Shown here: one piece after another, positions 1,971 to 20,470 of the stretch
How positions within the stretch are numbered: the stretch's first letter is position 1
How the letters are laid out: each line of letters opens with the position of its first letter
From: an uncultured Candidatus Saccharibacteria bacterium
GTDB lineage: Bacteria; Patescibacteriota; Minisyncoccia; Minisyncoccales; CG1-02-41-26
Length of the DNA stretch: 31,270 nt
Assembly: GCA_964417825.1 (NCBI GenBank)
Contig: CAYQJC010000002.1
Location: 1 to 31,270 of the forward strand
Direction: 5' to 3'
Notes under the pieces: generated by a model
Seen by the model: only the letters and a program-made list of their open reading frames with translations
Database searches by the model: none
What the model was told of the DNA's origin: nothing
Made by a program: the position numbers and the translations under genes

Positions 1971-1973
1971 AAT

Positions 1974-2906
1974 TTAGGGCCTAAGAATTTTTTTAATTAT
2001 TTTATTTTTATCAACAAATACGGGATAAAGTTCTTTGGCATCATAATATTTACCCATCATATATAACCCAGCACAAATATCATTCAAGAAACAGCTTTTA
2101 CAACATTCAGCTTTGGAATATCTAAAATTTTCTACTCTGACAAATCCTTTTTTATCTAAAAAATGAATGGCCATTTCCTCTCTCTTGACAATCTTTCTGG
2201 TCTCAGTAGAGCAGTGTTCAAAACCGGTCATGTAACAAAGAGGTACTCTCTCCACTCTGAAGGTCCGACCAGTTTTTTGTAAATACTCCATAGCCCGATG
2301 TAAAGATAATTCAAAATCATTTAATCGAGGAATGGTATCGGGATTTTCAGTAGCTCTATTCATTGAAGGGTCTAAATTGTTCCAAACGAAATGCCGCAAA
2401 AATGGAAATCTTTTAGTCAGCCAGATCACGTTTTTATCAAGGTGATCAGCATTATATTTGTTAATAACAGTATTAATATCTACTGTGATTCCTCCAATCT
2501 TTTTTAAGTTCTCCAGGGCTTTTTTGATGTTGGAGAAAGAGTCATCATTCTGAGTAAGGAATCCTTGGATGTCTGGTTTAATGGAATATATGGAAAGATG
2601 AAGATGATAAAGTCCTGAATCTTTGAGAAGCTTGAGATATCCAAAATCTGCTATTTTCTGCCCGTTGGTAATGACTCTGGCATGAATTTTCTTTTTTTTG
2701 CAATAAGAAAGGAATTTTGGTAATTGAGGTGATAAAGTTGGTTCTCCCCCAGTAAAAATAACTCCATCATACCCCTTTTTTATAAAATAATTGATATCAG
2801 AAAGGCCCTCTTGGAAAGAAAGGGTTTTTTTAGTGGGAGGGTTAGAACAAAATCTACATTTCTGATTACATTTCCTTGTAACTTGAATATATCCTAAAGT
2901 AGCCAT
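1974..2906 (-). CDS. Radical SAM protein, HxsC-like paralog
   Basis: CNQKCRFC, FTGGEPTL, ITNGQ, C-terminal VPLC...CKSCFLNDICAG. Confidence 0.85.
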   Translation of the reverse strand: MATLGYIQVTRKCNQKCRFCSNPPTKKTLSFQEGLSDINYFIKKGYDGVIFTGGEPTLSPQLPKFLSYCKKKKIHARVITNGQKIADFGYLKLLKDSGLYHLHLSIYSIKPDIQGFLTQNDDSFSNIKKALENLKKIGGITVDINTVINKYNADHLDKNVIWLTKRFPFLRHFVWNNLDPSMNRATENPDTIPRLNDFELSLHRAMEYLQKTGRTFRVERVPLCYMTGFEHCSTETRKIVKREEMAIHFLDKKGFVRVENFRYSKAECCKSCFLNDICAGLYMMGKYYDAKELYPVFVDKNKIIKKILRP

Positions 2907-2909
2907 ACA

Positions 2910-3887
2910 TTAATAAGCAACATTTACTCCTAAATAGAGATACACTTTATTTTCTCTATTAAATCCGTAATCAACTCCCATAGCCGCTGGGAAAAAGGAT
3001 ATTTGTTTATAAGATTCTCTTTTATATTCTGCAAGATTTTTCTCCCTTTTTGTCGAATTTTTTGATAAAAATTTCCATTTCCTTAAGAGAATTATTTATA
3101 TCTTTTATATCCTTGAAATCATATACTTTATTAATTTTGATTGATTTAAGTGAATGTTTGCTAAATCTATACAAGATGTAGAAATGAGCGCTTTTTTCTC
3201 TGTTTAATAAAAGAAAAATGTTAATAGTGCTTCCTGTTCTTTTAGTTTTATTATTTTTGAAAAATTTATTAATGAGTTCTGGATCAAGTTTTTTGTAACG
3301 ATTATATATTTTCAGATTTTCTTCAGCTGAGGAAAAATCAACAGCAATTATCACATCCGAATCTGGATAGCCAGTTTCTTTAACTACTTTTTATGGTCAA
3401 TAGAAAAAAGCCGACAAACTTCATTGATTTTCTTTACTTTTTCTTTTTTGGAATAATCAAGAGATAATTTGTCAAAATAAATCTTTAATCTATTTGGGAA
3501 TCGCCCTTTGGCTTGTTCAAAACCAAAATATAAGCGGTATCTGTCGGTTAAAGGAAAGATAGAGAAGATTTTCTCTAAATTCTCCATATCATAAATTTTG
3601 TAAAAGGCAAAAATTTTTTTAATCTTACTACAAAACTCCTTTTTCTCCCAATATTTATCTCCAGTAGAATAACTTGAAAACCTGAACGAAGAAAATGGTT
3701 CCGAAGGATTAAATGAAAATTCGAACCACATTTTTTGACTCTTTTTTTTACAATTTTTTAACAATATATCTCTTATTTCTATTAAATTATCTCCTTGTCC
3801 TTGAAAAATTTTTTCAATTAAAAAATCCCAAATCTCCTCAAACTTTTCTTTTTGTATTGGATGTTCAGGAATAATAGCTTTGGCCAT
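2910..3887 (-). pseudogene. Stand-alone paralog of the N-terminal (predicted ABBA prenyltransferase-like) domain of 5007-6953, interrupted by three -1 frameshifts
   Basis: ORFs 3384-3887 and 3022-3354 plus unannotated 2910-3030 align colinearly with the 648-aa protein N-terminus (WFEFSF..PFSSFRF, RLKIYF, DSDVIIAVDF, LKIYN, FFPAAMGVDY..YLYLG). One added base each at 3388-3392, about 3032-3041 and 2992-2996 restores a ~326-aa ORF ending at TAA 2910-2912. Confidence 0.8.
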
Positions 3888-3923: not shown

Positions 3924-4532
3924 TCATTTGTCTGTAATTGGTGTATTTATATCTACAAGATTGGTTGCTATTTCAGTTATTCTAAATTTTTTTCTAATCC
4001 AAACCTCTACAATTTCATAAGCTCCAAAAAAGCAAGAGACATAAAACAAATTACCTAATAAAGTATTTTTAAAAAATGGTAAAGCCATCGAATAACACTG
4101 GAGTAATCCAGAAAAAGTTTTAGGATACCAGGGAGTAAAACCCCAGACAGCAAGATTAGTTATAAGAAAAAATAAAACTGCACCCAAAATTGAACTTCCA
4201 CAAATTGTATAGCAATTCTTATGTTTTTTTAACCAAATTCCTAAAACACTACACAAAAGGAAGCTTCCATACACAAAAACCATTAAAATTGGCCGATAAA
4301 AACCAAGAAATATATCACTAATCAGCATAGCTAAGAGGGGAGTGGTTAAAGCTATTTTTTTTGAAAAATAAACTCCTCCAAATAAAGCAATGGCAGCAAT
4401 AGGAGTAAAATTAGGGAGATGAGGAAGCAATCTTAAGCTAACTCCTACTAAAATTAAAAGCAAGGCAATCGAAAACTCTATAATTTCACCCTTTTTAGAG
4501 AGATTAATTTTTGATATAAATGTTATTGGCAT
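3924..4532 (-). CDS. DUF6580-like putative membrane transport protein (ECF S-component-like, possibly corrinoid or metal uptake)
   Basis: Multi-TM protein with LPHLPNFTPIAAIALFGG and WY...GLLQCYSMALPFFKNTLLGNLFY motifs; adjacent to a DUF4430-like gene. The substrate is inference. Confidence 0.65.
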   Translation of the reverse strand: MPITFISKINLSKKGEIIEFSIALLLILVGVSLRLLPHLPNFTPIAAIALFGGVYFSKKIALTTPLLAMLISDIFLGFYRPILMVFVYGSFLLCSVLGIWLKKHKNCYTICGSSILGAVLFFLITNLAVWGFTPWYPKTFSGLLQCYSMALPFFKNTLLGNLFYVSCFFGAYEIVEVWIRKKFRITEIATNLVDINTPITDK

Positions 4533-4535
4533 AAA

Positions 4536-4972
4536 TTAAAATGGCGACTTTTCAAATCTAAACTCTACTTTATCTCCTGGTTTTATCTCTTTTTTATCGA
4601 CTGAGACCATTGGCATTTCATTATTAACGTAATACATCCAATACTTTCCATCTTGGCCGTTTTTTTTATTTCCAATAGCTTCAATAAGAATTCCAAAATC
4701 ATAAGTTTTTATTTTTAAGGGTATGTTTAATTCCTCCGTTTTATTTTTTAATAAATCAAAGGCAGTCATGCCCTTACTGAATTCGGCTTTAAGGTTCTTT
4801 AGGCTTCCCTCCCCATCATTAATAACCAAAAAATCACCTTCTCTTGAACATTTTCTTGAGTAATTCCAATTTCCTCTTGAGAAATAGGTTGCCCAACCTT
4901 ACTAGAAAATATTAATATTACTAAGCTGCTAATAACAACGATTATTCCTATTATAATATTTACTTTTTTCAT
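4536..4972 (-). pseudogene. DUF4430 (transcobalamin-C-terminal-like) membrane-anchored protein with one homopolymer frameshift
   Basis: ORF 4536-4829 has TAFDLL, FGILIEAIG, GKYWMYYVNNEMPMVSVD..IKPGDKVEFRF. An upstream ATG at 4970-4972 gives MKKVNIIIGIIVVISSLVILIFSS (signal anchor) and joins this frame only if the A6 run at 4828-4833 changes length (+1 or -2). Confidence 0.7.
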
Positions 4973-5006: not shown

Positions 5007-6953
5007 TCATCTTATTGGTTTAAGGTCACTTAATCCACCACATCTTCTATACCCTTCGTAAATTCCCGGGCATACTTTCTTCCGTGAGCAAAATTGGCAA
5101 CATTTCCCTTTAATCCTTTGGCCCTCGTCGGTTCTATAAAATCTGTCCTCAAAAACTTCACTCATATACAAGATATTATTTGTCTGAAGATTGTCTTTTA
5201 AATCCGGATTATCCACTAAACAATCTGACAGACCATCAAAGCCAGTTTTTATTTTTTTAGAGATAGCGCAGTGCATAGCTTCGTTTATTGCCAAAGAGGC
5301 TTCTTTAAGCGATGGGATTAATTTATTAAAATTTTTCAAAGCTTCTCCTTTTGGCTCAACCAAAGAAAATTTAATTCGATTGATTTTGAATTCTTCTACT
5401 AAATCAACGATCTTTTTTAGGTCTTTAAGATTGAGCTTCGTAACCACCACATTTACTATTAGCTCAATCTGATGGCTAGAAAGATTTTTAAGAGCTCTCA
5501 GGGTTTGATTAAAACTCCCCGGCGTTCTGGTAATAAAATCGTGCCTTTCCGGATTTGCTGAATTTAAAGTAAGATAAACATATTTTAGATTTCTTTTTAA
5601 AAGATTCTCGGAGAGTTTTCGATAACTTAATAATCTTCCATTGGTGATTAATCCCCAAGGAATCTTTCTTTGCCAGAGGGAATTAACTACTTTAGGAAAA
5701 TCTGGATGTAAAGTCGGCTCACCACCAGAAAAAAGAATCATTTCCGCTCCAATTTGTAATGCCTGATTAATTTTGTTTATTATTTGATGAAATCGAAGAG
5801 GAGGAATATTTCTCTTATCTAAAGCATGGCAAAAAAGGCAGTTATTGTTACATTGGTATTGAATTTTTATCAAGGCTTTTTTTAAATCGATTATCTTTTT
5901 CACTTTCTCACATTTTTGATAGGTAACCTTAGAACCCAAATAGAGGTATGGTCTTCTAAAATTATTTTGAGAAAAATCAATTCCTATCGCACTTGGGAAA
6001 AAAGAATATTTGTCCACAAAATTTCTTTTGAGGATTTGCCATGAATTTTTCTCTTTTTTATTTAATTTACTAAAGAATAATTTTAGCTCCTCGGTTAAAT
6101 TTCCCATACCAGTTATTTTCTGGAACTCATAAATTTTAAAAAATTTGATTGATTCCAGTTCTGAATCTTGATTAAACCGATGAAGAAGATACCAAGAACC
6201 ACTTTTCTCTTTATTTAACAAAAGCAAATTATCAATGAGATTTTTTGATGCTTTCAGGTTATTATTTTTAAAGACCCGGGAAATGAGGTTGCGGTTTAAT
6301 TTTTTATAGTGGTTATATATCTTTAGATTCTTTAGATTTTTTGGAGAAGGGAAAAAATCAATACCAATTAAATCAGAATCTGAAAAATGAGCTATCTTAG
6401 AAATTTTTTCATTATTAAACCCAAGAATCTGACACATCTTATTAATTTTTTTTATCCATTCTTGCCTTGGACAACAATGAGATAATCTCCAAAAATAAAT
6501 TTTTAATCTAGCCGGAAATTTTCCCTTAGATTGAACGAATCCAAAGGATACCTGATATTTATCCAGAGGAAAAAGTGAAAGAATTTTTTCAAGCTTATTA
6601 AAATTATCAATTTGAAATAAATCAAAAATCTTTTTTATTTTGCTGACGAACTCCTCTTTCTCCCAATATTTATCATCACCATCGATTCTGGAACATGCAA
6701 ATCTAAAGGAGGAAAAAGGATTTGGGAGAATAAATGAGAATTCAAACCATATCTGCTTTGGGAAGATGTTATCACCCTCATCGAGAAAGATATTTCTAAT
6801 TTTTTTTAGTTTGCCTAAGCTTTCTAAATGAGCTTTTCTAATTAAAAATTCCCAAGCCTCTTCCAGAACTTCTTTCTCTACTCCTTGCTTAAATTTAACT
6901 GGTTTAATAGCTTCTAATCCTCTGTAATTTTTAAAATTTTTTATAATTTTCAT
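5007..6953 (-). CDS. Two-domain protein: predicted ABBA/DMATS-type prenyltransferase-like N-terminal domain fused to an HxsC-like radical SAM domain
   Basis: The C-terminal ~290 aa carry CNNNCLFC, FSGGEPTL, ITNGR, TRTPGSF and CQFCSRKKVCPG (radical SAM, confident). The N-terminal ~345 aa show five beta-hairpin-like motifs with FEFSF..FRF, RLKIYF and LKIY (prenyltransferase call is inference). Confidence 0.7.
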   Translation of the reverse strand: MKIIKNFKNYRGLEAIKPVKFKQGVEKEVLEEAWEFLIRKAHLESLGKLKKIRNIFLDEGDNIFPKQIWFEFSFILPNPFSSFRFACSRIDGDDKYWEKEEFVSKIKKIFDLFQIDNFNKLEKILSLFPLDKYQVSFGFVQSKGKFPARLKIYFWRLSHCCPRQEWIKKINKMCQILGFNNEKISKIAHFSDSDLIGIDFFPSPKNLKNLKIYNHYKKLNRNLISRVFKNNNLKASKNLIDNLLLLNKEKSGSWYLLHRFNQDSELESIKFFKIYEFQKITGMGNLTEELKLFFSKLNKKEKNSWQILKRNFVDKYSFFPSAIGIDFSQNNFRRPYLYLGSKVTYQKCEKVKKIIDLKKALIKIQYQCNNNCLFCHALDKRNIPPLRFHQIINKINQALQIGAEMILFSGGEPTLHPDFPKVVNSLWQRKIPWGLITNGRLLSYRKLSENLLKRNLKYVYLTLNSANPERHDFITRTPGSFNQTLRALKNLSSHQIELIVNVVVTKLNLKDLKKIVDLVEEFKINRIKFSLVEPKGEALKNFNKLIPSLKEASLAINEAMHCAISKKIKTGFDGLSDCLVDNPDLKDNLQTNNILYMSEVFEDRFYRTDEGQRIKGKCCQFCSRKKVCPGIYEGYRRCGGLSDLKPIR

Positions 6954-8368
6954 TTTTTAATCGTTTTAATCGGCTTTAAAATCTTATAGCCGAAATTGCG
7001 AATATAGTTTATATGAACACCCGGACAGCTTTTAAAATATTTACATTTCCGACATCTGATACTTTTGGTATAGTACTTTTTTAAGATGAACCAATCGGTG
7101 TATTTATAAATATCAATAAAACCTCCTCTATAGATTTCAGAAATATCACTATCCTTTTCTGTAACAATCTCGCCTTTGGGATACAGACATATGGGAATGT
7201 TTTCAATCTTAAACCCTGGGAGTTTAACTTTACTAAAAAAACTTCTTAAATTTATATCATTTTTTTTAGATTGAGATAAAAGGTGGTGATTTTCTTGAAA
7301 AAAAACAATTTTATCTCGAAATCTATAAAGTTTTTTTAAATTCCTTAAAATCCAATCTTTGGTTCTTTTATTAATGGCAATCTCAAAACATCCTTTTTGA
7401 GCAAAATTAATTTTTTTTATATCATTCTCATTTTTTATTAAAGTCACAGATTTCTTTGAAAAATCTCTTTTTGTCTCTGGATGTTTAACCAAGAGCAACT
7501 GGAAACAGAAATCTTTTAAAAAACACCATTTACATCTTTCCCCCCAACAAGGCATAAGTTTATCCTCTCTTAAAAATTTGTTAAACAAACCTTCTCTTCC
7601 CTTCACCTCATCGTATAATTTCACCGGATCCTGGATTAAATCCTCAGACCCCTCAAGATAGGGAGGAGGAAATCGGTTGGTCCAAAGATGAACTCTTGAA
7701 TCATGGGAAATCTTAAAAGCTCTTTTAAGATAAGGTAAAGCGTCTTCAATTTTGTAAAAAACTTTCTTTTTGTTTTTCCAAGCATCGCCAAAAGGAATGA
7801 TTTGTAAAAGATCGAATTCATAAACTCCAAGACCCATAAAAAATTTTATAATTTCAGGAAGTCGTCGATAATTAATTTTATTTATAACAATATCTATATT
7901 CACAATCAGCCCCTTGCAACTTAAAGCATTGATTAATCCCGTCATCGCTTGAGAGAAAGAACCCTTAACTTGACTTTGAACTTCATATAATTTTTCAGTA
8001 TGACCATGAATTGAAAAAGTAATTTCATCTACCCCCCTTTCAATGGCTTTTTTAAGAAATCCTTTGTAGCTGAACATTCGGCCATTGGTAATTATCTGGA
8101 CTTTTTTGTAACCAAGTTCTTTAGTAAATTCTACTACTTCTAGAAATTGTGGATGTAAAGTCGGCTCTCCTCCCGAAAGCACCGCTCTTTCAGCTCCGTT
8201 CTTAATTCCCTCCTTTAACTTTTCTTTTATTATCTTTAAGGGAACGAAGGTTCCATCCTGAGAGGGTCTATCCAAACAAAAAATGCACCGGTTATTACAG
8301 CACCGAGTTAACCTAACCCACTGACGTCTTTCCTGGGAAGCTTTTTCTTTCTCCAATAATCTGTTCAT
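6950..8368 (-). CDS. Radical SAM protein, HxsC-like, with an extra C-terminal Cys module
   Basis: CNNRCIFC, LSGGEPTL, ITNGR; two C-terminal Cys sets, CKWCFLKDFC and IPICL...CRKCKYFKSCPG. Confidence 0.85.
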   Translation of the reverse strand: MNRLLEKEKASQERRQWVRLTRCCNNRCIFCLDRPSQDGTFVPLKIIKEKLKEGIKNGAERAVLSGGEPTLHPQFLEVVEFTKELGYKKVQIITNGRMFSYKGFLKKAIERGVDEITFSIHGHTEKLYEVQSQVKGSFSQAMTGLINALSCKGLIVNIDIVINKINYRRLPEIIKFFMGLGVYEFDLLQIIPFGDAWKNKKKVFYKIEDALPYLKRAFKISHDSRVHLWTNRFPPPYLEGSEDLIQDPVKLYDEVKGREGLFNKFLREDKLMPCWGERCKWCFLKDFCFQLLLVKHPETKRDFSKKSVTLIKNENDIKKINFAQKGCFEIAINKRTKDWILRNLKKLYRFRDKIVFFQENHHLLSQSKKNDINLRSFFSKVKLPGFKIENIPICLYPKGEIVTEKDSDISEIYRGGFIDIYKYTDWFILKKYYTKSIRCRKCKYFKSCPGVHINYIRNFGYKILKPIKTIKK

Positions 8369-8380
8369 GATAAGATAAAA

Positions 8381-9271
8381 TTATTTAACCGGCTTAAACT
8401 CCTCCCAGCCAAAATGTTCTGGATATTCTCGCCAAGGTCCTTCGCAAATTTTAAAATATTTACACCTCTTGCAACTTTCCGCTTTGGTTTTACCTTCCTC
8501 TTTTCTCGCTTTAGTGAAATTAATTATTTGATCTCGCTCAAATACTGTAGTATCTGGTATAATTTTCTCAGCAATATAATCTTCATAGCCTTTCATAAAA
8601 CAGAGGGGAATGGCTTCAGTCATTACTCTCTTGCCGGCTTTTCGTCCAATATCTAACCCTTCTTTCACGAAGGGTTCAACTAAGCTTTTTCTTGGAACAA
8701 TTGAATCAAAATTTTCTTCTGCCCTGCCCAAAGCATGAGGGAAGGCAAATTGAAACTGATCTACTCCAAGTTTCACCAGAAGCTTTGCAATCTCGGGAAG
8801 ATGTCGATAGTTAGACTTAGTAATAACAGTATTGGTTACTACCGCAACTCCCAGTAATTTGAGATTTTTTATCCCTCTCACTGTTTGGGAAAAACTTCCT
8901 TTAACGGTCGTTAAATAATCATGAAGTTGAGGAATATGCCCGTGTAAAGCAGGTGAAAATTCGTTGGCTCCAGCTAAAATTGTTTTTTTGCAAAATTCTT
9001 TGTAAGCGAACATCCTGCCATTAGTTTGGATTTGGATAATCTTAAATTTTAGATTACTAGCATATCTTACTAATTCTAAAAAATCTTTTCTTATTGTCGG
9101 TTCTCCACCAGTGAAGACTACTCCCTGACAATTTTCTTTTTTTGCCTTCCTTAGGGCTTCTTTAACTTCCTGGGTAGTTTTATCGGGATAAATCTCTCTT
9201 TTGTTACCTTGAACGCAAAAACGACATCTATTATTACAAGAAAACCCCACTTTTATATCTGCTCTTTTCAT
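8381..9271 (-). CDS. Radical SAM protein, HxsC-like paralog
   Basis: CNNRCRFC, FTGGEPTI, QTNGR, IPLC...CKRCKYFKICEG; first gene after precursor 9406-9660. Confidence 0.85.
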   Translation of the reverse strand: MKRADIKVGFSCNNRCRFCVQGNKREIYPDKTTQEVKEALRKAKKENCQGVVFTGGEPTIRKDFLELVRYASNLKFKIIQIQTNGRMFAYKEFCKKTILAGANEFSPALHGHIPQLHDYLTTVKGSFSQTVRGIKNLKLLGVAVVTNTVITKSNYRHLPEIAKLLVKLGVDQFQFAFPHALGRAEENFDSIVPRKSLVEPFVKEGLDIGRKAGKRVMTEAIPLCFMKGYEDYIAEKIIPDTTVFERDQIINFTKARKEEGKTKAESCKRCKYFKICEGPWREYPEHFGWEEFKPVK

Positions 9272-9405: not shown

Positions 9406-9660
9406 TTACCAATTTCCATGGGAACCATGGGAACCATGGGAACCATGAGAACCATGGGAAGTATGAGAAGCATGACGTCCTCGAGCTCCTGAGTTGTGAA
9501 AATAATTGCTGTGTCCAGCGTGAGTAATAGTTGCATCTAAAGCGATCCCAATTACAGCTAAAGCAGCTCCAATTTTAGCAATACTTTTTTTACTTATTTT
9601 CCCCTCTTCGGAGTTAAGAAAAGTTCTAAGATTTTTTTTGATTTTTGGAATTTTCTTCAT
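9406..9660 (-). CDS. hxsA: His-Xaa-Ser repeat precursor peptide 1 (HxsA-like)
   Basis: 84 aa: basic leader, FLNSEEGKISKK, hydrophobic stretch, THA-G, then HNS...HAS HTS HGS HGS HGS HGS HGN W; located in a cluster with HxsB and HxsD. Confidence 0.85.
   Translation of the reverse strand: MKKIPKIKKNLRTFLNSEEGKISKKSIAKIGAALAVIGIALDATITHAGHSNYFHNSGARGRHASHTSHGSHGSHGSHGSHGNW
9416..9460. repeat. Five tandem 9-bp units (ccatgggaa x3, ccatgagaa, ccatgggaa) encoding Ser-His-Gly repeats
   Basis: Read directly from the sequence; in frame within hxsA1. Confidence 0.95.
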
Positions 9661-9681: not shown

Positions 9682-10641
9682 TTATTTTCCCCAGAGAATT
9701 TGTTCATATATTTTTGTTTTCATATCACAATACTTCTCTTTTAATGCTTTCCCATAGAGATTTTGGCAAGTTTTTCCTTCATAAAATAACCCTCTAACCT
9801 GTTTAACAAATTCTACCTCTTGGTGAGATCGATTAAGAATTTTCGACCTTTCTTGAAATTTCTCAGCAGCTTTTTCTCCATTAGGCAGAAGAGACTGAAA
9901 ATAGTAAACTATCATCTCGCAATTATTTTTCTCATCTTTCTCTAATTTTTTGCATAAGTTTAGATCATCCAAAGCTAAGGCTTCACAAGAAGTTTGAAAA
10001 GATGGATTATTCTCTATTTTCGAGCAAAATTGAGCATCTTCCTTAGATAAGACCTCAAGAGCAATCTCGCAGTACTCCTTGCTGCCTCCCATATATTTTG
10101 ATACCTGTTCTTCTTCACAGATACTAATATCGGGGGATCTATTTTCAATTATAGGTAAGATAACTTTATAATAAATAAAATAATTCCGCTGACAAGTATC
10201 GTAACTTACTTTTGCCTCCTCCCCTTTCGCCCCTTCAACAACTTCTCCACTTTCTCTGGTTATCTCTTCAGGACCCATCTCAAAAAATCTATCACATTCT
10301 GCTAAATTTTCATGTTCAAGAGCTAAACAAAATATGAAATCTCTGGACAGTCTCTTTACCTCCCATTCTCCAAACTCCCCCATCTCTTCTCCGGGAAGAG
10401 TCACTGGTTCTATTGCCCAAGCTTCCAACAAAGGCTGAGGAGTCTTCAAACAAGTTTCTTTAAATTTTTCAACTTTCATATCAATCTCCTCTCTTTGAGA
10501 AACAGAAATTTCTTCTCCGGGCTTTCCTTTTTTCTTCCAAAATTCTGCTATTTCTTCTTTTTGAAGAAATACGAACAAAGAAGCTTGGAAAACTACTATC
10601 GCGATTAAAATCCAAATAATAATTTTTATCTTTTTCTCCAC
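9682..10641 (-). CDS. Cys-rich, N-terminally membrane-anchored protein (paralog family member 1)
   Basis: N-terminal TM IIIWILIAIVVFQASLFVFL, 12 Cys in short helical repeats, C-terminal KEKYC; ends 21 nt before hxsA1. Confidence 0.8.
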   Translation of the reverse strand: MEKKIKIIIWILIAIVVFQASLFVFLQKEEIAEFWKKKGKPGEEISVSQREEIDMKVEKFKETCLKTPQPLLEAWAIEPVTLPGEEMGEFGEWEVKRLSRDFIFCLALEHENLAECDRFFEMGPEEITRESGEVVEGAKGEEAKVSYDTCQRNYFIYYKVILPIIENRSPDISICEEEQVSKYMGGSKEYCEIALEVLSKEDAQFCSKIENNPSFQTSCEALALDDLNLCKKLEKDEKNNCEMIVYYFQSLLPNGEKAAEKFQERSKILNRSHQEVEFVKQVRGLFYEGKTCQNLYGKALKEKYCDMKTKIYEQILWGK

Positions 10642-10708: not shown

Positions 10709-11857
10709 TTAACGGAAAATAGCTAAAATAATGCTCAAAATGGAATTTTGGGTAACTAAAGTAATAATAAACCCCAAAAATAAAAAAGGAGAAAATGGGA
10801 AAGTACGATAAATTTTTAATTTCTTTTCCGGTTCCTGACCCCAGATCTTCCTAATGAAATTTACCTGATCCTCAGTTAGTCCCTCAGAGAAAAAAGACCC
10901 TATTTTAGCTTCTATTTCTTTTTTTGTTTTTAATTGCATCTTTTTCAAGAGTTCTCTTAAAGTTGTTTGAGAAAGAATCATCTGAGGTCGGAGCTCTTTT
11001 AATTTTATTTCTCTGGTTTCTTTCTTTTCAATGTAAAAATCTAATATCTGACGAAGCAAGTTTATAATGACCATAAAAAATAAAGCAGTTTTAAGAATAT
11101 TAAAAAGAACTCCTAATTGAGAAGTGCTCACTAAGTACCCACTGTAAACCAAAGAGCCAATTCCTAATCCTAAAACAACTTTTTTCTTTTTACCTAAAAT
11201 TCTAAAAATAACTCTATAAGAGAAAAAGATAACAAAGAAAATTAAAACTGGATTTGAAATAACAGAGCTGAGCTGCTGAGAAACCTGGGCCCTTGCTAAA
11301 TGTAAAATAATAAATATCGAAATAAACCCTACAAAAGTACCGGCTATCTTCTTGACTTTCGGTTTAATCTCAATAAATAGTTTTTTCAAAGAACTAAAAT
11401 TAATTTTGGTCTTTTTTATCTTTAAAATTTCTTTTATCCCTATTACTGAACCTTGAATCACCAAAAGAATAAGTAAAGGAAAAAAGGTATTAACTAAGAG
11501 ACAAAAAGAAGGAAAATAAGGTAGATAACTTTTTGAATAAAATTTTAAAGGCAAAAGCAAAGCATATAAAGTGAAAAGTTTAGCATCACCAGCTGACCAG
11601 AGATTAAAATACCAAATCCCATAACCTACCAAAAAGGCAATTCCTCCATTTAATAAAAGGTTTAGTAAATAGCGATCATTCTCCGGCTCATGAAGATAAA
11701 AAAGATTGTAAAGAAATAGTCCGAGATAAAGAAAAATCGCCCACATTAAACCAAAAAGAATCCACTTATTTTTAATTTTCCCATACCTAATATCAGTGAA
11801 ACAACAAATACCACCAACAATAAAAAGAGGGGTTAAGAATAAAAAATCAATAATCAT
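10709..11857 (-). CDS. A24-family prepilin/preflagellin-type aspartic peptidase with an extended membrane region
   Basis: Catalytic-type motifs TDIRYGKIKN and SAGDAKL, many TM segments, KELRPQMIL and C-terminal FPFSPFLFLG. Confidence 0.8.
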   Translation of the reverse strand: MIIDFLFLTPLFIVGGICCFTDIRYGKIKNKWILFGLMWAIFLYLGLFLYNLFYLHEPENDRYLLNLLLNGGIAFLVGYGIWYFNLWSAGDAKLFTLYALLLPLKFYSKSYLPYFPSFCLLVNTFFPLLILLVIQGSVIGIKEILKIKKTKINFSSLKKLFIEIKPKVKKIAGTFVGFISIFIILHLARAQVSQQLSSVISNPVLIFFVIFFSYRVIFRILGKKKKVVLGLGIGSLVYSGYLVSTSQLGVLFNILKTALFFMVIINLLRQILDFYIEKKETREIKLKELRPQMILSQTTLRELLKKMQLKTKKEIEAKIGSFFSEGLTEDQVNFIRKIWGQEPEKKLKIYRTFPFSPFLFLGFIITLVTQNSILSIILAIFR

Positions 11858-11998: not shown

Positions 11999-12241
11999 TT
12001 GAAAGAAAGATTTTATAGATTAAATGTAGGTTGGGAGACAATTGTTTTAGCTCTCCTGGTCATTATAGCTCTAAGCGGAACTCAGCGAATAACCACTTCA
12101 CCGAATAAGAGTTTCGTAACCCAGATCCCAAATTTTCTCCAACCACCAACCCGAGAAGAAATTAGAAAAACGGAGAGGATCAGAATAAGGATCGACGTAA
12201 GCCGAAATATTTGTTTGGCAAACCTCTTCGTTATTGGTTAA
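11999..12241 (+). CDS. Small hydrophobic hypothetical protein, probably a truncated membrane or secreted protein
   Basis: Strong SD 6 nt before TTG, upstream promoter, hydrophobic IVLALLVIIAL. The 3' part is antisense to the conserved portion of the 12098-12524 pseudogene. Confidence 0.5.
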   Translation: MKERFYRLNVGWETIVLALLVIIALSGTQRITTSPNKSFVTQIPNFLQPPTREEIRKTERIRIRIDVSRNICLANLFVIG

Positions 12242-12524
12242 AGCGGCTTGACATCCCAGGTAACCAATAAACCGATTGAGCAGTTCATCATCCAAAATAT
12301 TTGCGAAAGAACCGTCTTGAAGAATTCTATCCGAATCGAAATTCTCCAAGCAATATTCTTTTCTTCTTTCAACTGCTTTCTGGAGAAACTTTTGAATTTC
12401 CAAAGATATTTTAGAAGGAATTTCTTCTTTTTTCTCAAGATAACTTTTTCCAAGAAATATAAATTAAAAACAAGAACGATGAGTAAAGCTATCGTTAAGA
12501 TTAGAATTTTTTTCTCTTTTCCAT
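12098..12524 (-). pseudogene. Frameshifted and truncated Cys-rich membrane-anchored paralog (family member 2)
   Basis: ATG at 12522-12524. One added base at T7 12507-12513 and at T6 12428-12433 gives MEKRKKILILTIALLIVLVFNLYFL...VERRKEYCLENFD...YLGCQAALTNNEEVC, matching VEKRKEYCYNNFN...YITCKAV of 18011-18841. Similarity is lost after about 12200. Confidence 0.75.
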
Positions 12525-12558: not shown

Positions 12559-13356
12559 TTAATCCCTTCCCCAAACCTTGCGATGACAATATTTTGTTTT
12601 AAACTTCTCAAATTTTTCTTGACAAAAAGAAGTTGGGTTTTCCCTAAAGAATAACTGGCAATACATTTTAATATGAGGGTGTTCTATTTGGTTACATTTT
12701 GATTCTTCATTATCAATTAGGGCTTTGTAATACCGAGCTTGACTCTGGCAATACATTCTTTTTTCTTGAGAGTTATAAAAATTACAATATTTTTCATCCC
12801 CAGATAGCATAGCTAAACACCAGGCTTTAAAATCTTCATCTCCCCCTTCACTGCAGCGATAAAAGTCCCTTTCTAAGATTGCCAGACAAAATTTCTGGCA
12901 CCAAGCTTCCAGAGCTGGGTCTCCAGAATTACTAATTGCTTTTTTACACGCTTCAATTTCTCCTGCTTCACATTTTTTGTTTTTAATTATTCTTCCCAAG
13001 AAATTGGGAAAGAGATAAAATAATCTCTGACAATTTTTAGCAATATCAGGAGAAATATTTTTTAATAAGTTGCACTGAAAGGGATTTTGCTTTATAGCTG
13101 CTTGACATTCTAGGTATTGGATTAAATTTTCCATTGACTCTTGGCTATAGTAAATTACCCCTTCTCGAATCACCTGATTAAAATCAAACCTCTCTAGACA
13201 CTCTTTTTCTTTTTTCTCCAAAACCACCTGAAGTTCGGGTGAAATAGTTGGAGTGACTTCTTCTTTTTCTTTTGGTCGTCGAAGAACAATTAATGTAATG
13301 TTTAATATTACACCAATTGCTATTAGAGAGAGTATAATAATCAGTTTTTTGTTCAT
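12559..13356 (-). CDS. Cys-rich, N-terminally membrane-anchored protein (family member 3)
   Basis: TM LIIILSLIAIGVILNITLIVL, 16 Cys, KEKECLERFDFN, YLECQAA, C-terminal KTKYC. Confidence 0.8.
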   Translation of the reverse strand: MNKKLIIILSLIAIGVILNITLIVLRRPKEKEEVTPTISPELQVVLEKKEKECLERFDFNQVIREGVIYYSQESMENLIQYLECQAAIKQNPFQCNLLKNISPDIAKNCQRLFYLFPNFLGRIIKNKKCEAGEIEACKKAISNSGDPALEAWCQKFCLAILERDFYRCSEGGDEDFKAWCLAMLSGDEKYCNFYNSQEKRMYCQSQARYYKALIDNEESKCNQIEHPHIKMYCQLFFRENPTSFCQEKFEKFKTKYCHRKVWGRD

Positions 13357-14294: not shown

Positions 14295-14843
14295 TCAATT
14301 TTTAGAGCCAGAGGGCTTTTTATTTGATTTTTTCTTTTTCTCTTCTTCTTCCAACTTTTCAAGCGCCTTTAAATAATGGCGGCTTAATTCAAAAGCTGGA
14401 GGTGAAAATTTTTGGATTTGTTCCATCCGTTTTTGGAAAATTTTCAAGATTCTAATGGTATCAATAACACTAAGATGATAGTCGATAAATCTCCGAATGG
14501 CAAATATTGTCTCTCGTATCTCTATTTGTCTACCAACTTCCTCATTCCAAGCAGAAGCAAGAATAATAAATTCATTAACTAAATCTTTAAGAATCGGGGT
14601 GAGGGGTTGCTCAATGACAATTCTTAATAAAAGATTTAATATTTGTTTTATTTGGCTTTTTTCTTCTTCATTAACCCTAACTTTTCTTTTTTTTCGTTTT
14701 TCTTTCAATTGTCCGCCCATTAGCTCAACAGTTTTCTTGACTAAATCTAATTTCTCTTGGGTGAGAACGGAGTAAATCTGAATATGGCCCAAAATCTCCT
14801 TTAGTTTTTTAATATTTGGTTGATAAATAATTTTATTCTTCAT
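14295..14843 (-). CDS. Hypothetical helical protein coupled to the radical SAM pair
   Basis: 182 aa; start overlaps the upstream radical SAM stop by 11 nt; FSPPAFELSRHYL segment; no recognised family. Confidence 0.7.
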   Translation of the reverse strand: MKNKIIYQPNIKKLKEILGHIQIYSVLTQEKLDLVKKTVELMGGQLKEKRKKRKVRVNEEEKSQIKQILNLLLRIVIEQPLTPILKDLVNEFIILASAWNEEVGRQIEIRETIFAIRRFIDYHLSVIDTIRILKIFQKRMEQIQKFSPPAFELSRHYLKALEKLEEEEKKKKSNKKPSGSKN

Positions 14844-16161
14844 TAATAAATTCTTCTAGTAGATTTAGAGAAACCTTTTTATCTTTATTTAATTTCTCAA
14901 AAATTCTATCATAGATTCCTAATCTCTTATATGTTTTTATCATAGTTAAAATTTTAGCATGTTCAAGTTGGCAAACGGTGGGAATAGGTGAAAATAAATC
15001 TCCGGTTGTTTCGTATTGAGCCCCGAGACATCCCCCAGAACACAAATACTTTAAAGGGCAACTTTCACATATCGGAGCGGTTTTAATATCGAAGGTAATT
15101 GAGCCTATAAGTAATTCTGGGTTCTTACTTTCTATGCCGATAATTCTGCCATTTTTAACAATAAACCTTCCCAATTCAAATGGGGAATAAGATGTCCTAT
15201 GGCAAGGAATAAATGTTAAATCGCCTAATCTTAAATGAAAAGTGGATTGAAGAGAACAGCCTATTCCCCTACCAACAGTTGTTAAGGGAGAATGTAAAAT
15301 GTTATAACCTTTCTTATTGAATACGAAGTCGAGGAAATTGCCTTTGTTTTTTTGGCAAGGAAAATAGTAAGTCCATTCAATCAGAAACTCTATAAATCTC
15401 ATAAACTCTTTAATCTGTTTTTTTGACCACTCAACATTTCTGACTTCTAGTAAATAAATATTAAAAAAGGGAATGTTAAATTTTTTAAAGTTTTTTTGAA
15501 ACCAAAGAAAATTTTTCTGCCAATTCTCAATAAGTACAGAATAAATCATTGGATGGAATCCATAACAATACTTTTTATTAAAAGCGAAAACTCTCTCATA
15601 ATATTCATTATTCCGTTTTTCTTTTCCTGTCTTAAATGGTCTGTTTTTCTCACAATATTTTCCATCAAAGGAAGCTGATAAAATAATAGGCATTTCTAAT
15701 TCTCTTGAAGCTTGGATAAGTTCCTCAACCCGCTTAGTTTTTTCTGGCGAAAGCAGAAAGGTGTAATTGGTAGGAATAACAATGCTCTTTGGCCGATTTT
15801 TTACTGATTTAAACTTATTCAAAATTAGCTCTAAAGCCTTAAATCCTAGTTCCTGCGAGAAAGGTTCACCCCCAAAAATCTCAATTTTTGGATAATATCC
15901 CTTCCGAATAAGCCAGTCTAAAAACAGCGAGAGATTTCTTAAAAGAATTTTTGGGCTTTGAATTTCTATTGGATAAAGTTCTTCACCATAATTAGCCACA
16001 TAACAATATTTGCATTTTAAATTACAAGAAGTATTTAAGAAAATCTCTAACTGTTCAAAGTTAACCAAATCTTCCTTCCAACCCTTGAAAAAAGTGTGGT
16101 TTAAAAATGAATTTACTAATTTGTTATTTTCTTTTTGATAAAGTTTTATTTTTTCTGCCAT
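14833..16161 (-). CDS. Radical SAM/SPASM peptide maturase (non-HxsB/C type)
   Basis: CNLKCKYC, FGGEPF, SPASM-type GIGC..PCHRT..CESCPLKYLCSGGC..VC. Confidence 0.85.
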   Translation of the reverse strand: MAEKIKLYQKENNKLVNSFLNHTFFKGWKEDLVNFEQLEIFLNTSCNLKCKYCYVANYGEELYPIEIQSPKILLRNLSLFLDWLIRKGYYPKIEIFGGEPFSQELGFKALELILNKFKSVKNRPKSIVIPTNYTFLLSPEKTKRVEELIQASRELEMPIILSASFDGKYCEKNRPFKTGKEKRNNEYYERVFAFNKKYCYGFHPMIYSVLIENWQKNFLWFQKNFKKFNIPFFNIYLLEVRNVEWSKKQIKEFMRFIEFLIEWTYYFPCQKNKGNFLDFVFNKKGYNILHSPLTTVGRGIGCSLQSTFHLRLGDLTFIPCHRTSYSPFELGRFIVKNGRIIGIESKNPELLIGSITFDIKTAPICESCPLKYLCSGGCLGAQYETTGDLFSPIPTVCQLEHAKILTMIKTYKRLGIYDRIFEKLNKDKKVSLNLLEEFINEE

Positions 16162-17519
16162 TCTATATATTCTTTTAAAATTTCTTCAAAAGCACCGTTA
16201 GCAAAAAGTCTTATCATTGAGATGGGAGAAAAATGAATAACTCCAGTATTTAAGACATTTTCTGTAGGACATCCAAGGGCTAGATTTAAAAAAATAGCAA
16301 ATAAAATTGCCAAATCTTCATCTAAATAGCATTCGCTTGCTTGACCAACTAAAACAAGCTCCTGAAGCATTGCTAATGTGTAGCTGATTTTTAATCTAGT
16401 AAAATCGTGGTAGTTTCGCCCTACATAAAAAAGTCTTATTTTTTCTTCTAGTTTATTTATATCTACTATAAACTTATTTTTAATTAAATCTAAATTTCCT
16501 TTTTCAAACAAACTTACATCCCAATTTTTTATTTCTTCATTTTTTAAAATACTCTCAATGTACTCTTGATTATTTAAAAAGAAAGAGCGATGGCAAATAT
16601 GCAAATCATTGTCTATTCCCACTCCAAAATTACTATCTCCTCCGCTACAGGTGAACATATAAGGTTTGATAAATAACTCATTCTGATAGTCAAATAATCT
16701 CTTTAGGCGATAAACATAGGTATTTAAAGAACTTTTGACATACTTCCAATGTTGATTTTTTTTATTTTGCTTTCCTAAAATCCTTAAATTTCTAAAGAAA
16801 ATTGCTAATTCTTTCCCGTCAACTGAGGTATATTTCCCAGGGCAAACTAAAGTTGGAGTACAACTAGTTAGCAAACTTACTTTTTGATTTTTGTTCTTTC
16901 TTTTAAATTCTTGGAAAATTTTCTCAAAGAAATCGAAATATTTTCTTAATCTTTCCTTTTTCTTATTCAAGATCTTAATATTGTCAATTGATAAAGTTGG
17001 CTTTAGCGAAAATCTAACATTTAGATTGGTTAAGTTTATGGTATTTAATTTGCTGATTAAATAAAAAAAATTTTCAGTTATTTTTTTTGTTGCTCCAGGA
17101 CCTCTATTGATATCGGTAATAAAATCAGGACCATCTATGGAAATTTGGACTTTAAGATTAATTTTTTTCCTGGTTTTGGTTAAGGCTTTGATAAAATTCA
17201 AAATAATCTCCGGGTTGGTCAAGAGATTGGTCGAAAAAGAGATTCCCACCAGCTTAGGGAAAGTTTTGAAAAGAAAAGATAAAGATTTTTGAATTTTTTT
17301 TAGGGTTAATGTCGGTTCGGTCCCCCAGAATCCTAAATATTGAAGATTCTGACCGTAAGCTCTTTTTAAGGTATCGAGATACTCTCTCTGGTCAAGGTTA
17401 GTTATTATCTTATCTTGGAGAAATCCCATCTGGGAAGTTTTTGGGATATAACAATACTTACAGTTTAAAGGACAGGTAGCTGAAGAGAATAACTCTGTTG
17501 AAACCATTCTTTTGTTCAT
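16146..17519 (-). CDS. Radical SAM peptide maturase with a reduced SPASM/Twitch-like tail (non-HxsB/C type)
   Basis: CPLNCKYC, WGTEPTL, SIDGP, FTCSGG..HICHRS..LGCP; first gene after precursor 2. Confidence 0.85.
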   Translation of the reverse strand: MNKRMVSTELFSSATCPLNCKYCYIPKTSQMGFLQDKIITNLDQREYLDTLKRAYGQNLQYLGFWGTEPTLTLKKIQKSLSFLFKTFPKLVGISFSTNLLTNPEIILNFIKALTKTRKKINLKVQISIDGPDFITDINRGPGATKKITENFFYLISKLNTINLTNLNVRFSLKPTLSIDNIKILNKKKERLRKYFDFFEKIFQEFKRKNKNQKVSLLTSCTPTLVCPGKYTSVDGKELAIFFRNLRILGKQNKKNQHWKYVKSSLNTYVYRLKRLFDYQNELFIKPYMFTCSGGDSNFGVGIDNDLHICHRSFFLNNQEYIESILKNEEIKNWDVSLFEKGNLDLIKNKFIVDINKLEEKIRLFYVGRNYHDFTRLKISYTLAMLQELVLVGQASECYLDEDLAILFAIFLNLALGCPTENVLNTGVIHFSPISMIRLFANGAFEEILKEYIEWQKK

Positions 17520-18841: not shown

Positions 18842-18846
18842 ATTAT

Positions 18847-20274: not shown

Positions 20275-20470
20275 TTTTCATTTCGGCTAAAACATAATTA
20301 GAAAATTCGTCCTTTATTATATTTTTAACATCTTTATCTATTTTACTAAGCTCTACTTTTATTTTATTCTTTTCCTCTTTAGTTCCAAACTTAGCCAAAT
20401 TCTTATAGGCCTTGATCGCTTTTTTTACAGCACTGAGTTTGTAAAATCCCTTATTAAAAACAATAGTCAT
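20264..20470 (-). CDS. Short HxsD-like protein
   Basis: 68 aa, FNKGFYKLSAVKKAIKAY...DEFSNYVL, parallel to INPQLYPLEAIYGASYVF...REFLNEIL in 20506-20958; overlaps the hxsB start. Confidence 0.65.
   Translation of the reverse strand: MTIVFNKGFYKLSAVKKAIKAYKNLAKFGTKEEKNKIKVELSKIDKDVKNIIKDEFSNYVLAEMKNEH

Follow-up and report, generated by a model that had tools for sequence, protein, structure and literature searches.

The question raised by this locus is what a bacterium makes of a short reading frame that ends in seven contiguous histidine triplets and a lone tryptophan. The window, i.e. the whole stretch of DNA that was analysed, is 31,270 nucleotides long and carries this reading frame, here called precursor 1, at the following position.

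9406..9660, minus strand: precursor 1, gene for an 84-amino acid His-Xaa-Ser repeat peptide of the HxsA4 family (stop codon 9406..9408)

The frame opens with ATG, runs for 84 codons with the translation MKKIPKIKKNLRTFLNSEEGKISKKSIAKIGAALAVIGIALDATITHAGHSNYFHNSGARGRHASHTSHGSHGSHGSHGSHGNW* and closes with TAA. Against NF038313 (HxsA4) the protein scores 61.2 bits (E 1.4e-16, residues 3-82), above the cut-off of 55, and a six-frame search of the genome with the same model returns it at 60.1 bits, while no Pfam domain was matched. A database search gives 122 relatives at E<=0.01. Three further assemblies, from different samples, carry the identical sequence, three more have a diverged yet intact orthologue, and the slot of the gene between a Cys-rich protein gene and an HxsC4-like gene is conserved. 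Its layout of a leader, a hydrophobic segment and then a C-terminal HxS tandem is that of HxsA4, a plan common to 48 aligned relatives. Judged on its sequence, precursor 1 is a true small gene and a catalogued HxsA4 family member, not a novel type of element, and within a "type 4" His-Xaa-Ser (Hxs) system of radical SAM maturation it serves as the substrate protein. The earlier note had taken it for a precursor-like substrate of radical SAM maturases, a reading that is supported, and had not recognised the family (NF038313). The Hxs family was catalogued in silico over a decade ago; a literature search on HxsA4 and HxsC4 found no paper naming either, the family being known by names only.

The gene can be divided into five parts.

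9586..9660, minus strand: leader, residues 1-25, Lys-rich, with the motif KKxxxxFLxSEEGK (from the alignment of 48 relatives)
9538..9582, minus strand: hydrophobic segment, residues 27-41 (IAKIGAALAVIGIAL), signal-anchor or transmembrane-like (read from the sequence; position conserved family-wide)
9475..9537, minus strand: linker, residues 42-62, carrying the HSNYFHNSGARGR motif (common to precursor 2)
9412..9474, minus strand: array of seven H-x-x triplets (HAS HTS HGS×4 HGN), residues 63-83
9409..9411, minus strand: C-terminal Trp84 (TGG), tail type HG[Q/N]W (from tail statistics)

In the alignment of 48 relatives F14 and E18 of the leader are invariant and K8, K9, L15, E19 and G20 are kept in at least 90% of sequences; the leader is a probable recognition or processing element. 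Loci were retrieved with a degenerate DNA pattern for KKxxxxFLxxEEGK[IM], and this pattern alone led to at least 119 genome loci, with HxsB within 8 kb in 97 and HxsD within 8 kb in 58. More than 200 relatives share the plan of KKxxxxFLxSEEGK leader, hydrophobic segment, 2-56 HxS units and, mostly, a Trp near the C-terminus, which falls within the last four residues in 96/121 relatives. In many of them the hydrophobic segment is followed by AxA, a site that signal peptidase I could use. The linker motif FHNSGARG(R/D)H is present in both precursors, as had been observed, the second being encoded at 17561..17995; HNSG is a subfamily motif found in 28/213 unique relatives. The translation confirms the seven triplets followed directly by Trp and stop, the array consisting of six HxS units and HGN before W84 and TAA, and H75, H78 and H81 are invariant across the family alignment. 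Precursor 1 contains no Cys, so that any cross-link in it must be C-C, C-N or C-O. As a candidate terminator downstream of the precursor only a weak consensus hairpin was found (fold z-score 0.22).

At the DNA level the HGS units are encoded, in order, by CATGGTTCT, three times CATGGTTCC and CATGGAAAT; these are indeed the near-identical 9-mers with one synonymous change described before, a single T/C difference. In Tandem Repeats Finder the region 9416..9460 is an array of period 9 bp with 5.0 copies, 94% matches and a score of 83 (a period-18 row scores 90), which is the top short-period array in the window except for a 45-bp array at 27894. The description of this array as prone to slippage holds between species, where its length within one tail group varies from 5 to 29 units, and does not hold within the population, where independent assemblies agree on an invariant array at the consensus level. 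From that of a sister lineage the array differs by one unit. In this comparison 17/72 nt differ in array and tail, in addition to a 9-nt indel, against 9/183 nt in leader and linker, i.e. the core evolves faster than the leader.

The cluster around precursor 1 spans about 20 kb and includes, besides a second precursor, eight radical SAM genes together with genes for a peptidase and a prenyltransferase. The genome measures 524 kb, and about 4% of its DNA is given to this one peptide system. The genes relevant here are the following.

5007..6953, minus strand: 648-amino acid fusion of a predicted ABBA prenyltransferase-fold domain (5904..6953) and an HxsC-like radical SAM domain (5007..5903)
6950..8368, minus strand: HxsC-like radical SAM enzyme, 472 amino acids, with a 240-amino acid C-terminal extension
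8381..9271, minus strand: HxsC4-like radical SAM enzyme, 296 amino acids, directly downstream of precursor 1
9682..10641, minus strand: Cys-rich single-pass membrane protein, 319 amino acids, ending 21 nt before precursor 1
10709..11857, minus strand: A24 (prepilin-peptidase-like) membrane aspartyl peptidase (weak PF01478 match)
12559..13356 and 18011..18865: paralogues of the Cys-rich membrane protein
17561..17995, minus strand: precursor 2, 144 amino acids, HxsA3/A4-like, with leader and linker as in precursor 1
18847..20274, minus strand: HxsB radical SAM/SPASM maturase (TIGR03978, 514 bits, cut-off 370)
20264..20470, minus strand: HxsD-like small protein, 68 amino acids (NF038315, 70.1 bits, cut-off 41)
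20506..20958, minus strand: HxsD (TIGR03976, 64.2 bits, cut-off 50)

HxsB and HxsD exceed their curated cut-offs, and the HxsB gene and precursor 1, though 9 kb apart, are parts of one strand-consistent cluster. Precursor 2 stays narrowly under the cut-offs of both NF038309 (55.6 bits) and NF038313 (51.1 bits). The three HxsC-like enzymes score far under the curated HxsC and HxsC4 cut-offs, the 296-amino acid enzyme reaching 185 bits with NF038332 (cut-off 500) and 108.6 bits with TIGR03977 (cut-off 267.9), and by these thresholds they are HxsC-like paralogues, not equivalogs. The closest orthologues of the 296-amino acid enzyme (E about 1e-137) are found in prenyltransferase-bearing clusters, four of them fused to the prenyltransferase, and the 472-amino acid enzyme has an orthologue in the sister lineage which is 96% identical. 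The Cys-rich membrane proteins share seven invariant Cys in alignment, and their homologues adjoin the precursor in six other loci (L008, L009, L093, L138, L144 and L146). The AF2 model of the paralogue at 12559..13356 shows a transmembrane helix and an all-alpha repeat (pLDDT 87.9); this model, though confident, had no significant match among PDB folds.

The A24-type peptidase is a candidate leader peptidase. Both catalytic-Asp motifs, D-I-R-x-x-K-I-x-N and W-x-A-G-D-A-K-L, are kept in 15 Hxs-linked A24 homologues from bacteria and archaea. As in the processing of type IV prepilins and preflagellins, a positively charged leader with a conserved Gly precedes the hydrophobic segment and an A24-type peptidase with both Asp motifs is at hand in the cluster; in distinction to that system the Gly of precursor 1 (EEG-K) follows Glu, not Lys or Arg, and stands some 8 residues ahead of the hydrophobic stretch.

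The series HxsD, HxsD-like, HxsB, Cys-rich membrane protein, HxsA4 and numerous radical SAM enzymes recurs in Omnitrophota, Patescibacteria and metagenome loci, and type-4 clusters occur in Elusimicrobia, Omnitrophota, Myxococcota, CPR bacteria and DPANN archaea. The closest catalogued system is the NCBIfam type-4 set (HxsA4 NF038313, HxsD-like NF038315, HxsC4 NF038332, HxsB TIGR03978, HxsD TIGR03976), all members of which except HxsC4 are found over cut-off here, and the gene order HxsD, HxsD-like, HxsB ... HxsA4, radical SAM enzymes matches that of the loci named by NCBI in Omnitrophota and Patescibacteria. The window departs from this set in the low score of its HxsC-like enzyme, 185 bits against the cut-off of 500 for HxsC4, in the position of HxsB, 9 kb off and beside precursor 2, and in the presence of the prenyltransferase-radical SAM fusion. 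PADLOC 2.0, which has no Hxs model, gave only generic viperin-like radical SAM matches.

The first function for Hxs was described for the HXS system of E. coli and other Pseudomonadota, which blocks the entry of phage DNA (Li et al., Nat Commun 2026, PMC13128918). There N-terminal processing, export and a single +8 Da modification, placed in the last HxS repeat, all require HxsB, HxsC and HxsD, and for function no repeat is dispensable (PMC13128918). The effector, which MS covers up to residue 214 and which is at least that long, has five basic repeats and a peptidoglycan-binding domain; the four genes of the system form one operon of fixed order, D-B-C-A, with 99.7% of its occurrences in Pseudomonadota (PMC13128918). 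Common to both is an HxS-repeat protein with an N-terminal export signal, matured in E. coli by HxsB, HxsC and HxsD. The peptide of the window, in contrast, has 84 residues, Gly-rich repeats and a Trp tail, has no peptidoglycan-binding domain and no room for one, and differs in this from the E. coli effector; its cluster is no four-gene operon: about 20 kb of an ultra-small genome hold two precursors and, besides eight radical SAM genes, genes for a peptidase and a prenyltransferase. Type-4 clusters are much larger than E. coli HXS, their radical SAM enzymes numbering up to ten, and precursor 1 offers a testable handle on them.

The domain at 5904..6953 distinguishes this cluster. Searches of the 350-amino acid N-terminal domain with Pfam and NCBIfam gave noise only and no model match. 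Its AF2 model (pLDDT 78.9, pTM 0.82) consists of five alpha-alpha-beta-beta units, and the best 50 Foldseek matches in the PDB are all ABBA prenyltransferases (E 1e-7 to 1e-5, TM-score up to 0.67), including PirF 6pgm, PagF 5tu6, LimF 7vmw, PatF 4bg2, CymD 6os5, DMATS1 8db1 and also FunA, at a sequence identity of 9-15%. In 18 sequences of the domain R84, R149, K151, Y153, K211, Y213, R259 and K270 are invariant and are located on predicted strands. By its predicted fold the N-terminal 350 residues of the 648-amino acid protein are thus a real ABBA prenyltransferase fold, in line with the prenyltransferase domain that had been proposed. The predicted fivefold barrel is shared with the known ABBA enzymes, while the fusion to a radical SAM domain is described for none of the matched PDB entries and the host genome here is without visible isoprenoid genes. 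A search of 1.84 billion representatives returned 23 proteins at E<=1e-3; this very rare family is always embedded among Hxs radical SAM genes. In four loci it is fused to HxsC4, and in the window to the HxsC-like radical SAM domain, its partners being the radical SAM enzymes which most likely modify the last repeat.

As a check on Trp as the prenylation site, tail types were compared between clusters with and without the enzyme. In one direction the outcome is favourable: wherever a cluster has the prenyltransferase subfamily of the window and its precursor is visible, the tail is ...HGSHG[Q/N]W (7/7), compared to 6/94 genomes without the subfamily, a difference with Fisher p=5.7e-4 that is uncorrected for ancestry. 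A divergent prenyltransferase subfamily is found only with ...GGW(C) tails (8-kb loci and L009: L009/L080, L056, L065, L076, L099), and the weak genome-level prenyltransferase matches behind L017 and L128 go with GGWC tails likewise. On the HxsB tree the presence of the prenyltransferase requires at least 8 changes, and tail type shifts in the same direction in 4-5 of 5 independent pairs and in the opposite direction in none; with 5 pairs the sign test that takes phylogeny into account does not reach significance (median p 0.125). The genome-wide search for the prenyltransferase under-counts, the copy of L009/G446 having been missed and then recovered by a filter-free search, and as divergent copies are missed in this way its calls of absence are soft. 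The link between Trp and prenyltransferase is supported comparatively, the phylogeny-aware tests being underpowered, and the combination of a Trp-ending tail with a rare prenyltransferase-like enzyme hints at lipid attachment.

A natural loss is seen in the sister lineage, which has about 96-97% nucleotide identity to the window. Its prenyltransferase-radical SAM gene, on another contig, is decayed, with two deletions (105 bp and 682 bp) and a frameshift, and the precursor tail of this lineage reads ...HASHGSF, with Phe in place of Trp; enzyme and Trp have been lost together. The window holds a second prenyltransferase copy, frameshifted and truncated, and together with the decayed sister gene this shows that the prenyltransferase family is being lost in the clade. 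A 303-amino acid radical SAM protein of the sister lineage was considered as an orthologue of the fused radical SAM domain without its prenyltransferase and was rejected: it is 54% identical where the flanks are 96% identical, and is therefore a paralogue, inserted together with a B12-radical SAM gene.

The reading which we favour on balance, with some but not strong confidence, is that of a type-4 HxsA4 substrate which undergoes modification focused on its tail, is exported, has its Trp as a candidate for prenylation and serves as a His module of the envelope. In the cytoplasm HxsB, HxsD, HxsD-like and the HxsC4-type radical SAM enzymes would bind to the leader and act on the C-terminal part ahead of export, with a chemistry that, by analogy to E. 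coli HxsA, is probably site-specific and centred on the last repeat and the tail instead of placing one cross-link per triplet. The A24-type aspartyl peptidase of the cluster, or a signal peptidase, would remove or trim the leader at the membrane, and the His-rich array would reach the outside of the cytoplasm, free or anchored. The terminal Trp of ...HGSHG[Q/N]W would be the best candidate target of the ABBA prenyltransferase domain, the outcome being a C-terminal prenyl lipid. The array is probably a multivalent His module at the cell envelope. Its most likely role, by analogy, is an envelope barrier of the HXS anti-phage kind, with metal binding as the main alternative; as precursor 1 lacks the peptidoglycan-binding domain of the E. 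coli effector, the transfer of an anti-phage function is an extrapolation.

A more specific form of this reading is put forward tentatively, as a possibility that we would not yet count upon: the prenyltransferase fused to HxsC-type enzymes would lipidate the C-terminal Trp of ...HGSHG[Q/N]W after radical SAM modification of the last repeat, giving a prenyl-anchored His-rich surface peptide, with enzyme subfamilies co-evolving with the tail (G[Q/N]W vs GGWC). As part of the same tentative proposal, ultra-small Patescibacteria, Omnitrophota and relatives would harbour a prenylating subset of type-4 Hxs systems. If true, this would be the first case of prenylation among Hxs members and also the first radical SAM-prenyltransferase fusion with a peptide as its substrate; confirmation of the link would add lipidation to radical SAM peptide maturation and show what a 524-kb genome gains from spending about 4% of its DNA on one peptide system, while otherwise the gene is one more member of a known family.

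ABBA enzymes can prenylate His (LimF, FunA), Tyr, Ser/Thr or peptide termini too. It is conceivable, if rather doubtful, that the prenyltransferase-fold domain does not act on Trp84 and instead targets His or another residue in the way of LimF, is inactive or uses another donor, the Trp being an element of radical SAM recognition or cross-linking. The His-C2 geranyltransferase LimF and the free-His prenyltransferase FunA are among the fold matches, and both the second copy in the window and the sister copy are damaged. Tails of the Trp type often occur in the absence of the enzyme: in six genomes with no detectable prenyltransferase the precursor ends in HGQW, and together with the frequency of Trp in the family (96/121) this indicates a role of the Trp which does not depend on the enzyme and is not specific to prenylation. 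The suggestion of Trp as the prenylation site thus gains from the co-occurrence of tail and enzyme and from the Phe of the sister lineage, and loses from the family-wide presence of Trp, often without detectable enzyme. Furthermore, the genome of the window (92% complete) has no match to PF00348, PF01255, PF02401 or PF00288 (polyprenyl synthase, UppS, IspH, GHMP kinase), whereas PF00348, PF01255 and PF00288 were found in 14/14 control genomes and PF02401 in 10/14. No own source of DMAPP or GPP is visible, and the prenyl donor may come from uptake from a host or from genes in the missing 8% of the genome. Against an action elsewhere than on Trp84 stand the His repeats, present in all clusters while the enzyme subfamilies track the tail type, and the joint loss of enzyme and Trp in the sister lineage; the invariant Arg, Lys and Tyr, at alternate positions of the barrel strands in the model, would fit a retained diphosphate site.

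The earlier note had proposed a poly-cyclised His ladder, in which a radical SAM enzyme cyclises every His-x-Ser triplet, joining the His ring to residue+2 as in triceptides, to give seven rings in variable number. The substrate is a perfect Omega-x-x repeat in which H75, H78 and H81 are invariant, HxsA4 genes are followed by up to nine or ten radical SAM genes, and the lack of Cys leaves C-C, C-N or C-O cross-links. Triceptides resemble the system in their aromatic-x-x repeat, in His as a possible ring donor and in a SPASM-type maturase nearby, and His-containing three-residue cross-links are made by the radical SAM/SPASM enzymes HtkB and HaaB (PMC11499958). We nevertheless consider such a ladder improbable. 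In the sole Hxs system studied, that of E. coli, MS over the repeat region detected a single site-specific shift of +8 Da, on the last repeat, without multiples of -2 Da (PMC13128918). HxsB of the window is outside the cyclophane-forming families (XyeB, GrrM, FxsB, YhhB, AmcB), with 52 bits for YhhB (cut-off 445), 44 for GrrM (310) and 43.6 for AmcB (425); its next-best families are the nif11, PapB, SCIFF and QhpD maturases at 105-125 bits, which places it nearer to thioether-type SPASM maturases. Arrays in the family that reach 30-56 units, or that join the membrane anchor to a 340-amino acid domain, resemble a functional repeat module more than individually tailored sites. The ladder is left without support.

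(His-Gly-Ser)n is an obvious array of metal ligands, and the product could be chiefly a metal-binding peptide (a Ni/Zn/Cu/Co chelator or metallochaperone-like) instead of a defence effector or a classical bioactive RiPP. A DUF4430/DUF6580 pair within the operon, at 3924..4829, would suit this, as would the fact that His is mostly uncharged at neutral pH, which makes electrostatic DNA binding less likely for Gly-rich repeats without Arg and Lys. Against it, across the HxsA4 loci examined there is no conserved metal transporter or regulator, the Hxs system is very patchy (1/401 sampled genomes of the phylum above cut-off), and the set of tailoring enzymes turns over between lineages that are 96% identical, a pattern that fits conflict systems better than metal housekeeping. 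A chiefly metal-binding product is unlikely on these grounds, and the envelope barrier is preferred.

Least of all, with a chance so slight that it can be neglected, precursor 1 might be a low-complexity frame arisen by chance or an assembly artefact, as its short, A+T-rich frame with an internal tandem repeat and a contig of one assembly (L151) ending within the array could suggest, but this is ruled out by conservation, i.e. by the NF038313 score over the cut-off and the 122 homologues, by the three identical assemblies and the intact diverged orthologue in three others, and by the position kept between the Cys-rich protein gene and HxsC4.

Precursor 1 (9406..9660, minus strand) scores 61.2 bits (cut-off 55) against the NCBIfam model NF038313, "His-Xaa-Ser repeat protein HxsA4", and is a genuine member of this catalogued but unstudied family. 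It ends in ...R-HAS-HTS-HGS-HGS-HGS-HGS-HGN-W-stop, with CATGGTTCT encoding the first of the four HGS units and CATGGTTCC the other three; at 9416..9460 Tandem Repeats Finder detects an array with a 9-bp period (5 copies, 94% matches, score 83). The linker FHNSGARG(R/D)H is common to precursor 1 and the 144-aa precursor 2. Array, terminal Trp and shared linker are all present as the earlier note described them. The genes concerned are the following.

1056..2906: two more HxsC-like radical SAM enzymes
3022..3887, minus: second prenyltransferase-fold copy, frameshifted and truncated (167-aa ORF and 110-aa ORF in another frame)
3924..4829, minus: DUF6580 (202 aa) and DUF4430 (97 aa) genes, set between radical SAM genes
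5007..6953, minus: prenyltransferase-radical SAM fusion (648 aa)
9406..9660, minus: precursor 1 (84 codons)
9682..10641, 12559..13356 and 18011..18865, minus: three Cys-rich single-pass membrane proteins, plus a fragment at 12098..12403
14833..17519, minus: two further, non-Hxs radical SAM enzymes adjoining precursor 2 on its downstream side, with weak PapB-like matches
17561..17995, minus: precursor 2, with an HxS array and, after it, a tail rich in Cys and Asp
directly downstream of precursor 1: three HxsC-like radical SAM enzymes, all far under the curated HxsC/HxsC4 cut-offs
same strand as precursor 1: HxsD (TIGR03976, 64 bits, cut-off 50), a 68-aa HxsD-like protein (NF038315, 70 bits, cut-off 41) and HxsB (TIGR03978, 514 bits, cut-off 370)
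in the cluster of precursor 1: A24-type peptidase, a 382-aa membrane protein

The genome of the window (524 kb, 40 contigs, 92% complete; sampled genomes of the phylum span 0.5-1.4 Mb) is the only one among 401 sampled from its phylum with HxsA4 over the cut-off. Protein search returned 122 relatives, and the leader motif KKxxxxFLxxEEGK[IM], searched as a DNA pattern, gave at least 119 genome loci in Elusimicrobia, Patescibacteria, Omnitrophota, Myxococcota and DPANN archaea; among the loci listed, HxsB was found in 97 and HxsD in 58, with only 8 kb examined. All share a plan of Lys-rich leader (F14 and E18 invariant, G20 nearly so), hydrophobic segment, variable linker and HxS units, which number 2 to 56 overall and 5 to 29 within the group defined by the tail CRGGWCxPRC. 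Of 121 relatives, 96 have a Trp among their four C-terminal residues; recurrent C-termini are HGQW, [AS]RGGWC, SW, RW and SY. On the HxsB tree the window clusters with Patescibacteria loci having long or fused HxS proteins, apart from the other G[QN]W clusters, which suggests that the two precursor modules differ in history.

The earlier note proposed the Trp as a candidate prenylation site. Residues 1-350 of the 648-aa fusion have no match in Pfam or NCBIfam, and their AF2 model (18-sequence alignment, pLDDT 78.9, pTM 0.82) folds into five alpha-alpha-beta-beta units with invariant Arg/Lys/Tyr on predicted strands; its best 50 PDB matches are all ABBA prenyltransferases, including the peptide enzymes PirF, PagF, LimF and PatF. 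The family is very rare (23 matches at E<=1e-3 in a set of 1.84 billion representative proteins), and in all 13 metagenome loci recovered its neighbours are Hxs radical SAM genes. Four of these loci have the domain joined to the C-terminal end of the HxsC4 orthologue, and others encode it as a separate gene immediately after HxsC4; in the window another HxsC-like enzyme carries it as an N-terminal fusion. The second copy covers profile positions 3-158 and 170-275 in its longer and shorter ORF, respectively, and, lacking the last barrel unit, is probably a pseudogene.

Enzyme subfamilies track tail type. Wherever the subfamily of the window occurs with a visible precursor, the latter ends in HGSHG[Q/N]W (7/7: L008, L093, L138, L141, L144, L148 and the window). 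Of 97 genomes in which a precursor could be scored, this tail was found in 3/3 with a strong prenyltransferase match versus 6/94 without (Fisher p=5.7e-4, uncorrected for ancestry). In the 8-kb loci and L009, filter-free searches found a divergent subfamily only with GGW(C) tails (L009/L080, L056, L065, L076, L099), which shows that divergent copies are under-counted in the genome-wide searches; GGWC tails likewise accompany the weak matches at genome level behind L017 and L128. None of the Tyr/Phe-ended precursors examined had a prenyltransferase-like neighbour. Prenyltransferase presence needs at least 8 changes on the HxsB tree, and in independent contrasts the tail shifts in the same direction in 4-5 of 5 and in the opposite one in none (median p 0.125, five pairs putting significance out of reach). 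The comparative support for the Trp-prenyltransferase idea is real but not decisive. Trp-type tails are also frequent without the enzyme. Prenylation here is further weakened by the frameshifted second copy and by the genome itself, in which polyprenyl synthase, UppS, IspH and GHMP kinases had no match (in 14 control genomes IspH was matched in 10 and the others in all). ABBA enzymes are able to target His too, another argument against prenylation here.

Repeat number in the array, which the earlier note called slippage-prone, is stable within the population at consensus level and shifts between close lineages. The locus recurs at 99.96% identity, with precursor 1 unchanged, in three assemblies from other samples, whereas a sister lineage from three further samples, with flanking genes 96-97% identical, has eight triplets instead of seven and ends in ...HASHGSF. 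Leader and linker differ at 9/183 nt, array and tail at 17/72 nt plus a 9-nt indel. The tail changes along with the tailoring set: in the sister lineage the prenyltransferase-radical SAM gene is decayed by a 105-bp deletion of residues 81-115 (invariant R84 and E98 among them), a frameshift near residue 165 and a 682-bp deletion of the radical SAM cluster-binding core. The stretch of the second copy is deleted, and a radical SAM and a B12-radical SAM gene are gained after HxsC4. Such differences at about 96% nucleotide identity (L005:3025-5402 and L152:8-1175 in the sister lineage) amount to fast cassette turnover inside one cluster. The sister lineage, with its B12-binding radical SAM enzyme, has the DUF6580/DUF4430 genes too; they may form a pair for cofactor uptake.

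In the literature searched, HxsA4 and HxsC4 are named in no paper and experimental work on the Hxs system is confined to the E. coli HXS papers. There, HxsA needs all three of HxsB, HxsC and HxsD to be processed at its N-terminus and exported to the periplasm, and protection against phage DNA entry needs every repeat (PMC13128918). Mass spectrometry of HxsA found one +8 Da change, in the last repeat (SHRSS) (PMC13128918). The poly-cyclised His ladder formerly proposed gains no support. Most likely, radical SAM maturation would be guided by the leader and focused on the tail, with possible C-terminal prenylation, processing by the A24 peptidase or a signal peptidase, and display of the His-rich array at the envelope. 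The two catalytic Asp motifs of A24 peptidases both persist in 15 bacterial and archaeal Hxs-linked homologues of the 382-aa protein; candidate cleavage sites are the conserved leader EEG-K or the AxA that many relatives have after the hydrophobic segment. As to the role of the peptide, the leading guess is anti-phage action like that of HXS, metal binding being the main alternative.

The Cys-rich membrane protein at 9682..10641 ends 21 nt ahead of the precursor 1 gene; its family has seven invariant Cys and always adjoins a precursor, in other phyla also. For the paralogue at 12559..13356, AF2 gives a confident model (pLDDT 87.9), an all-alpha helical repeat; nothing in the PDB matches it significantly, and AimR peptide receptors are its weak best matches. 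In some loci of Patescibacteria and DPANN archaea (L032, L060, L079, L082, L107, L124) the same leader and HxS array are fused to a C-terminal domain of about 340 aa, starting CPF(V/L/I)xxWNGK and with no Pfam match; the array sits between membrane segment and domain, reminiscent of the modular E. coli HxsA. Paralogous HxS precursors, two or three in tandem, are encoded in L117:6092-7391 (Myxococcota-type) and L090:5057-6871 (Woesearchaeota). DPANN archaea (L010/L041, Nanobdellota; L045 and L090, Woesearchaeota; L047 and L052, Aenigmatarchaeota) have A24-like peptidases and HxsA4-type precursors whose leader motif is of the bacterial type, which implies transfer between domains.
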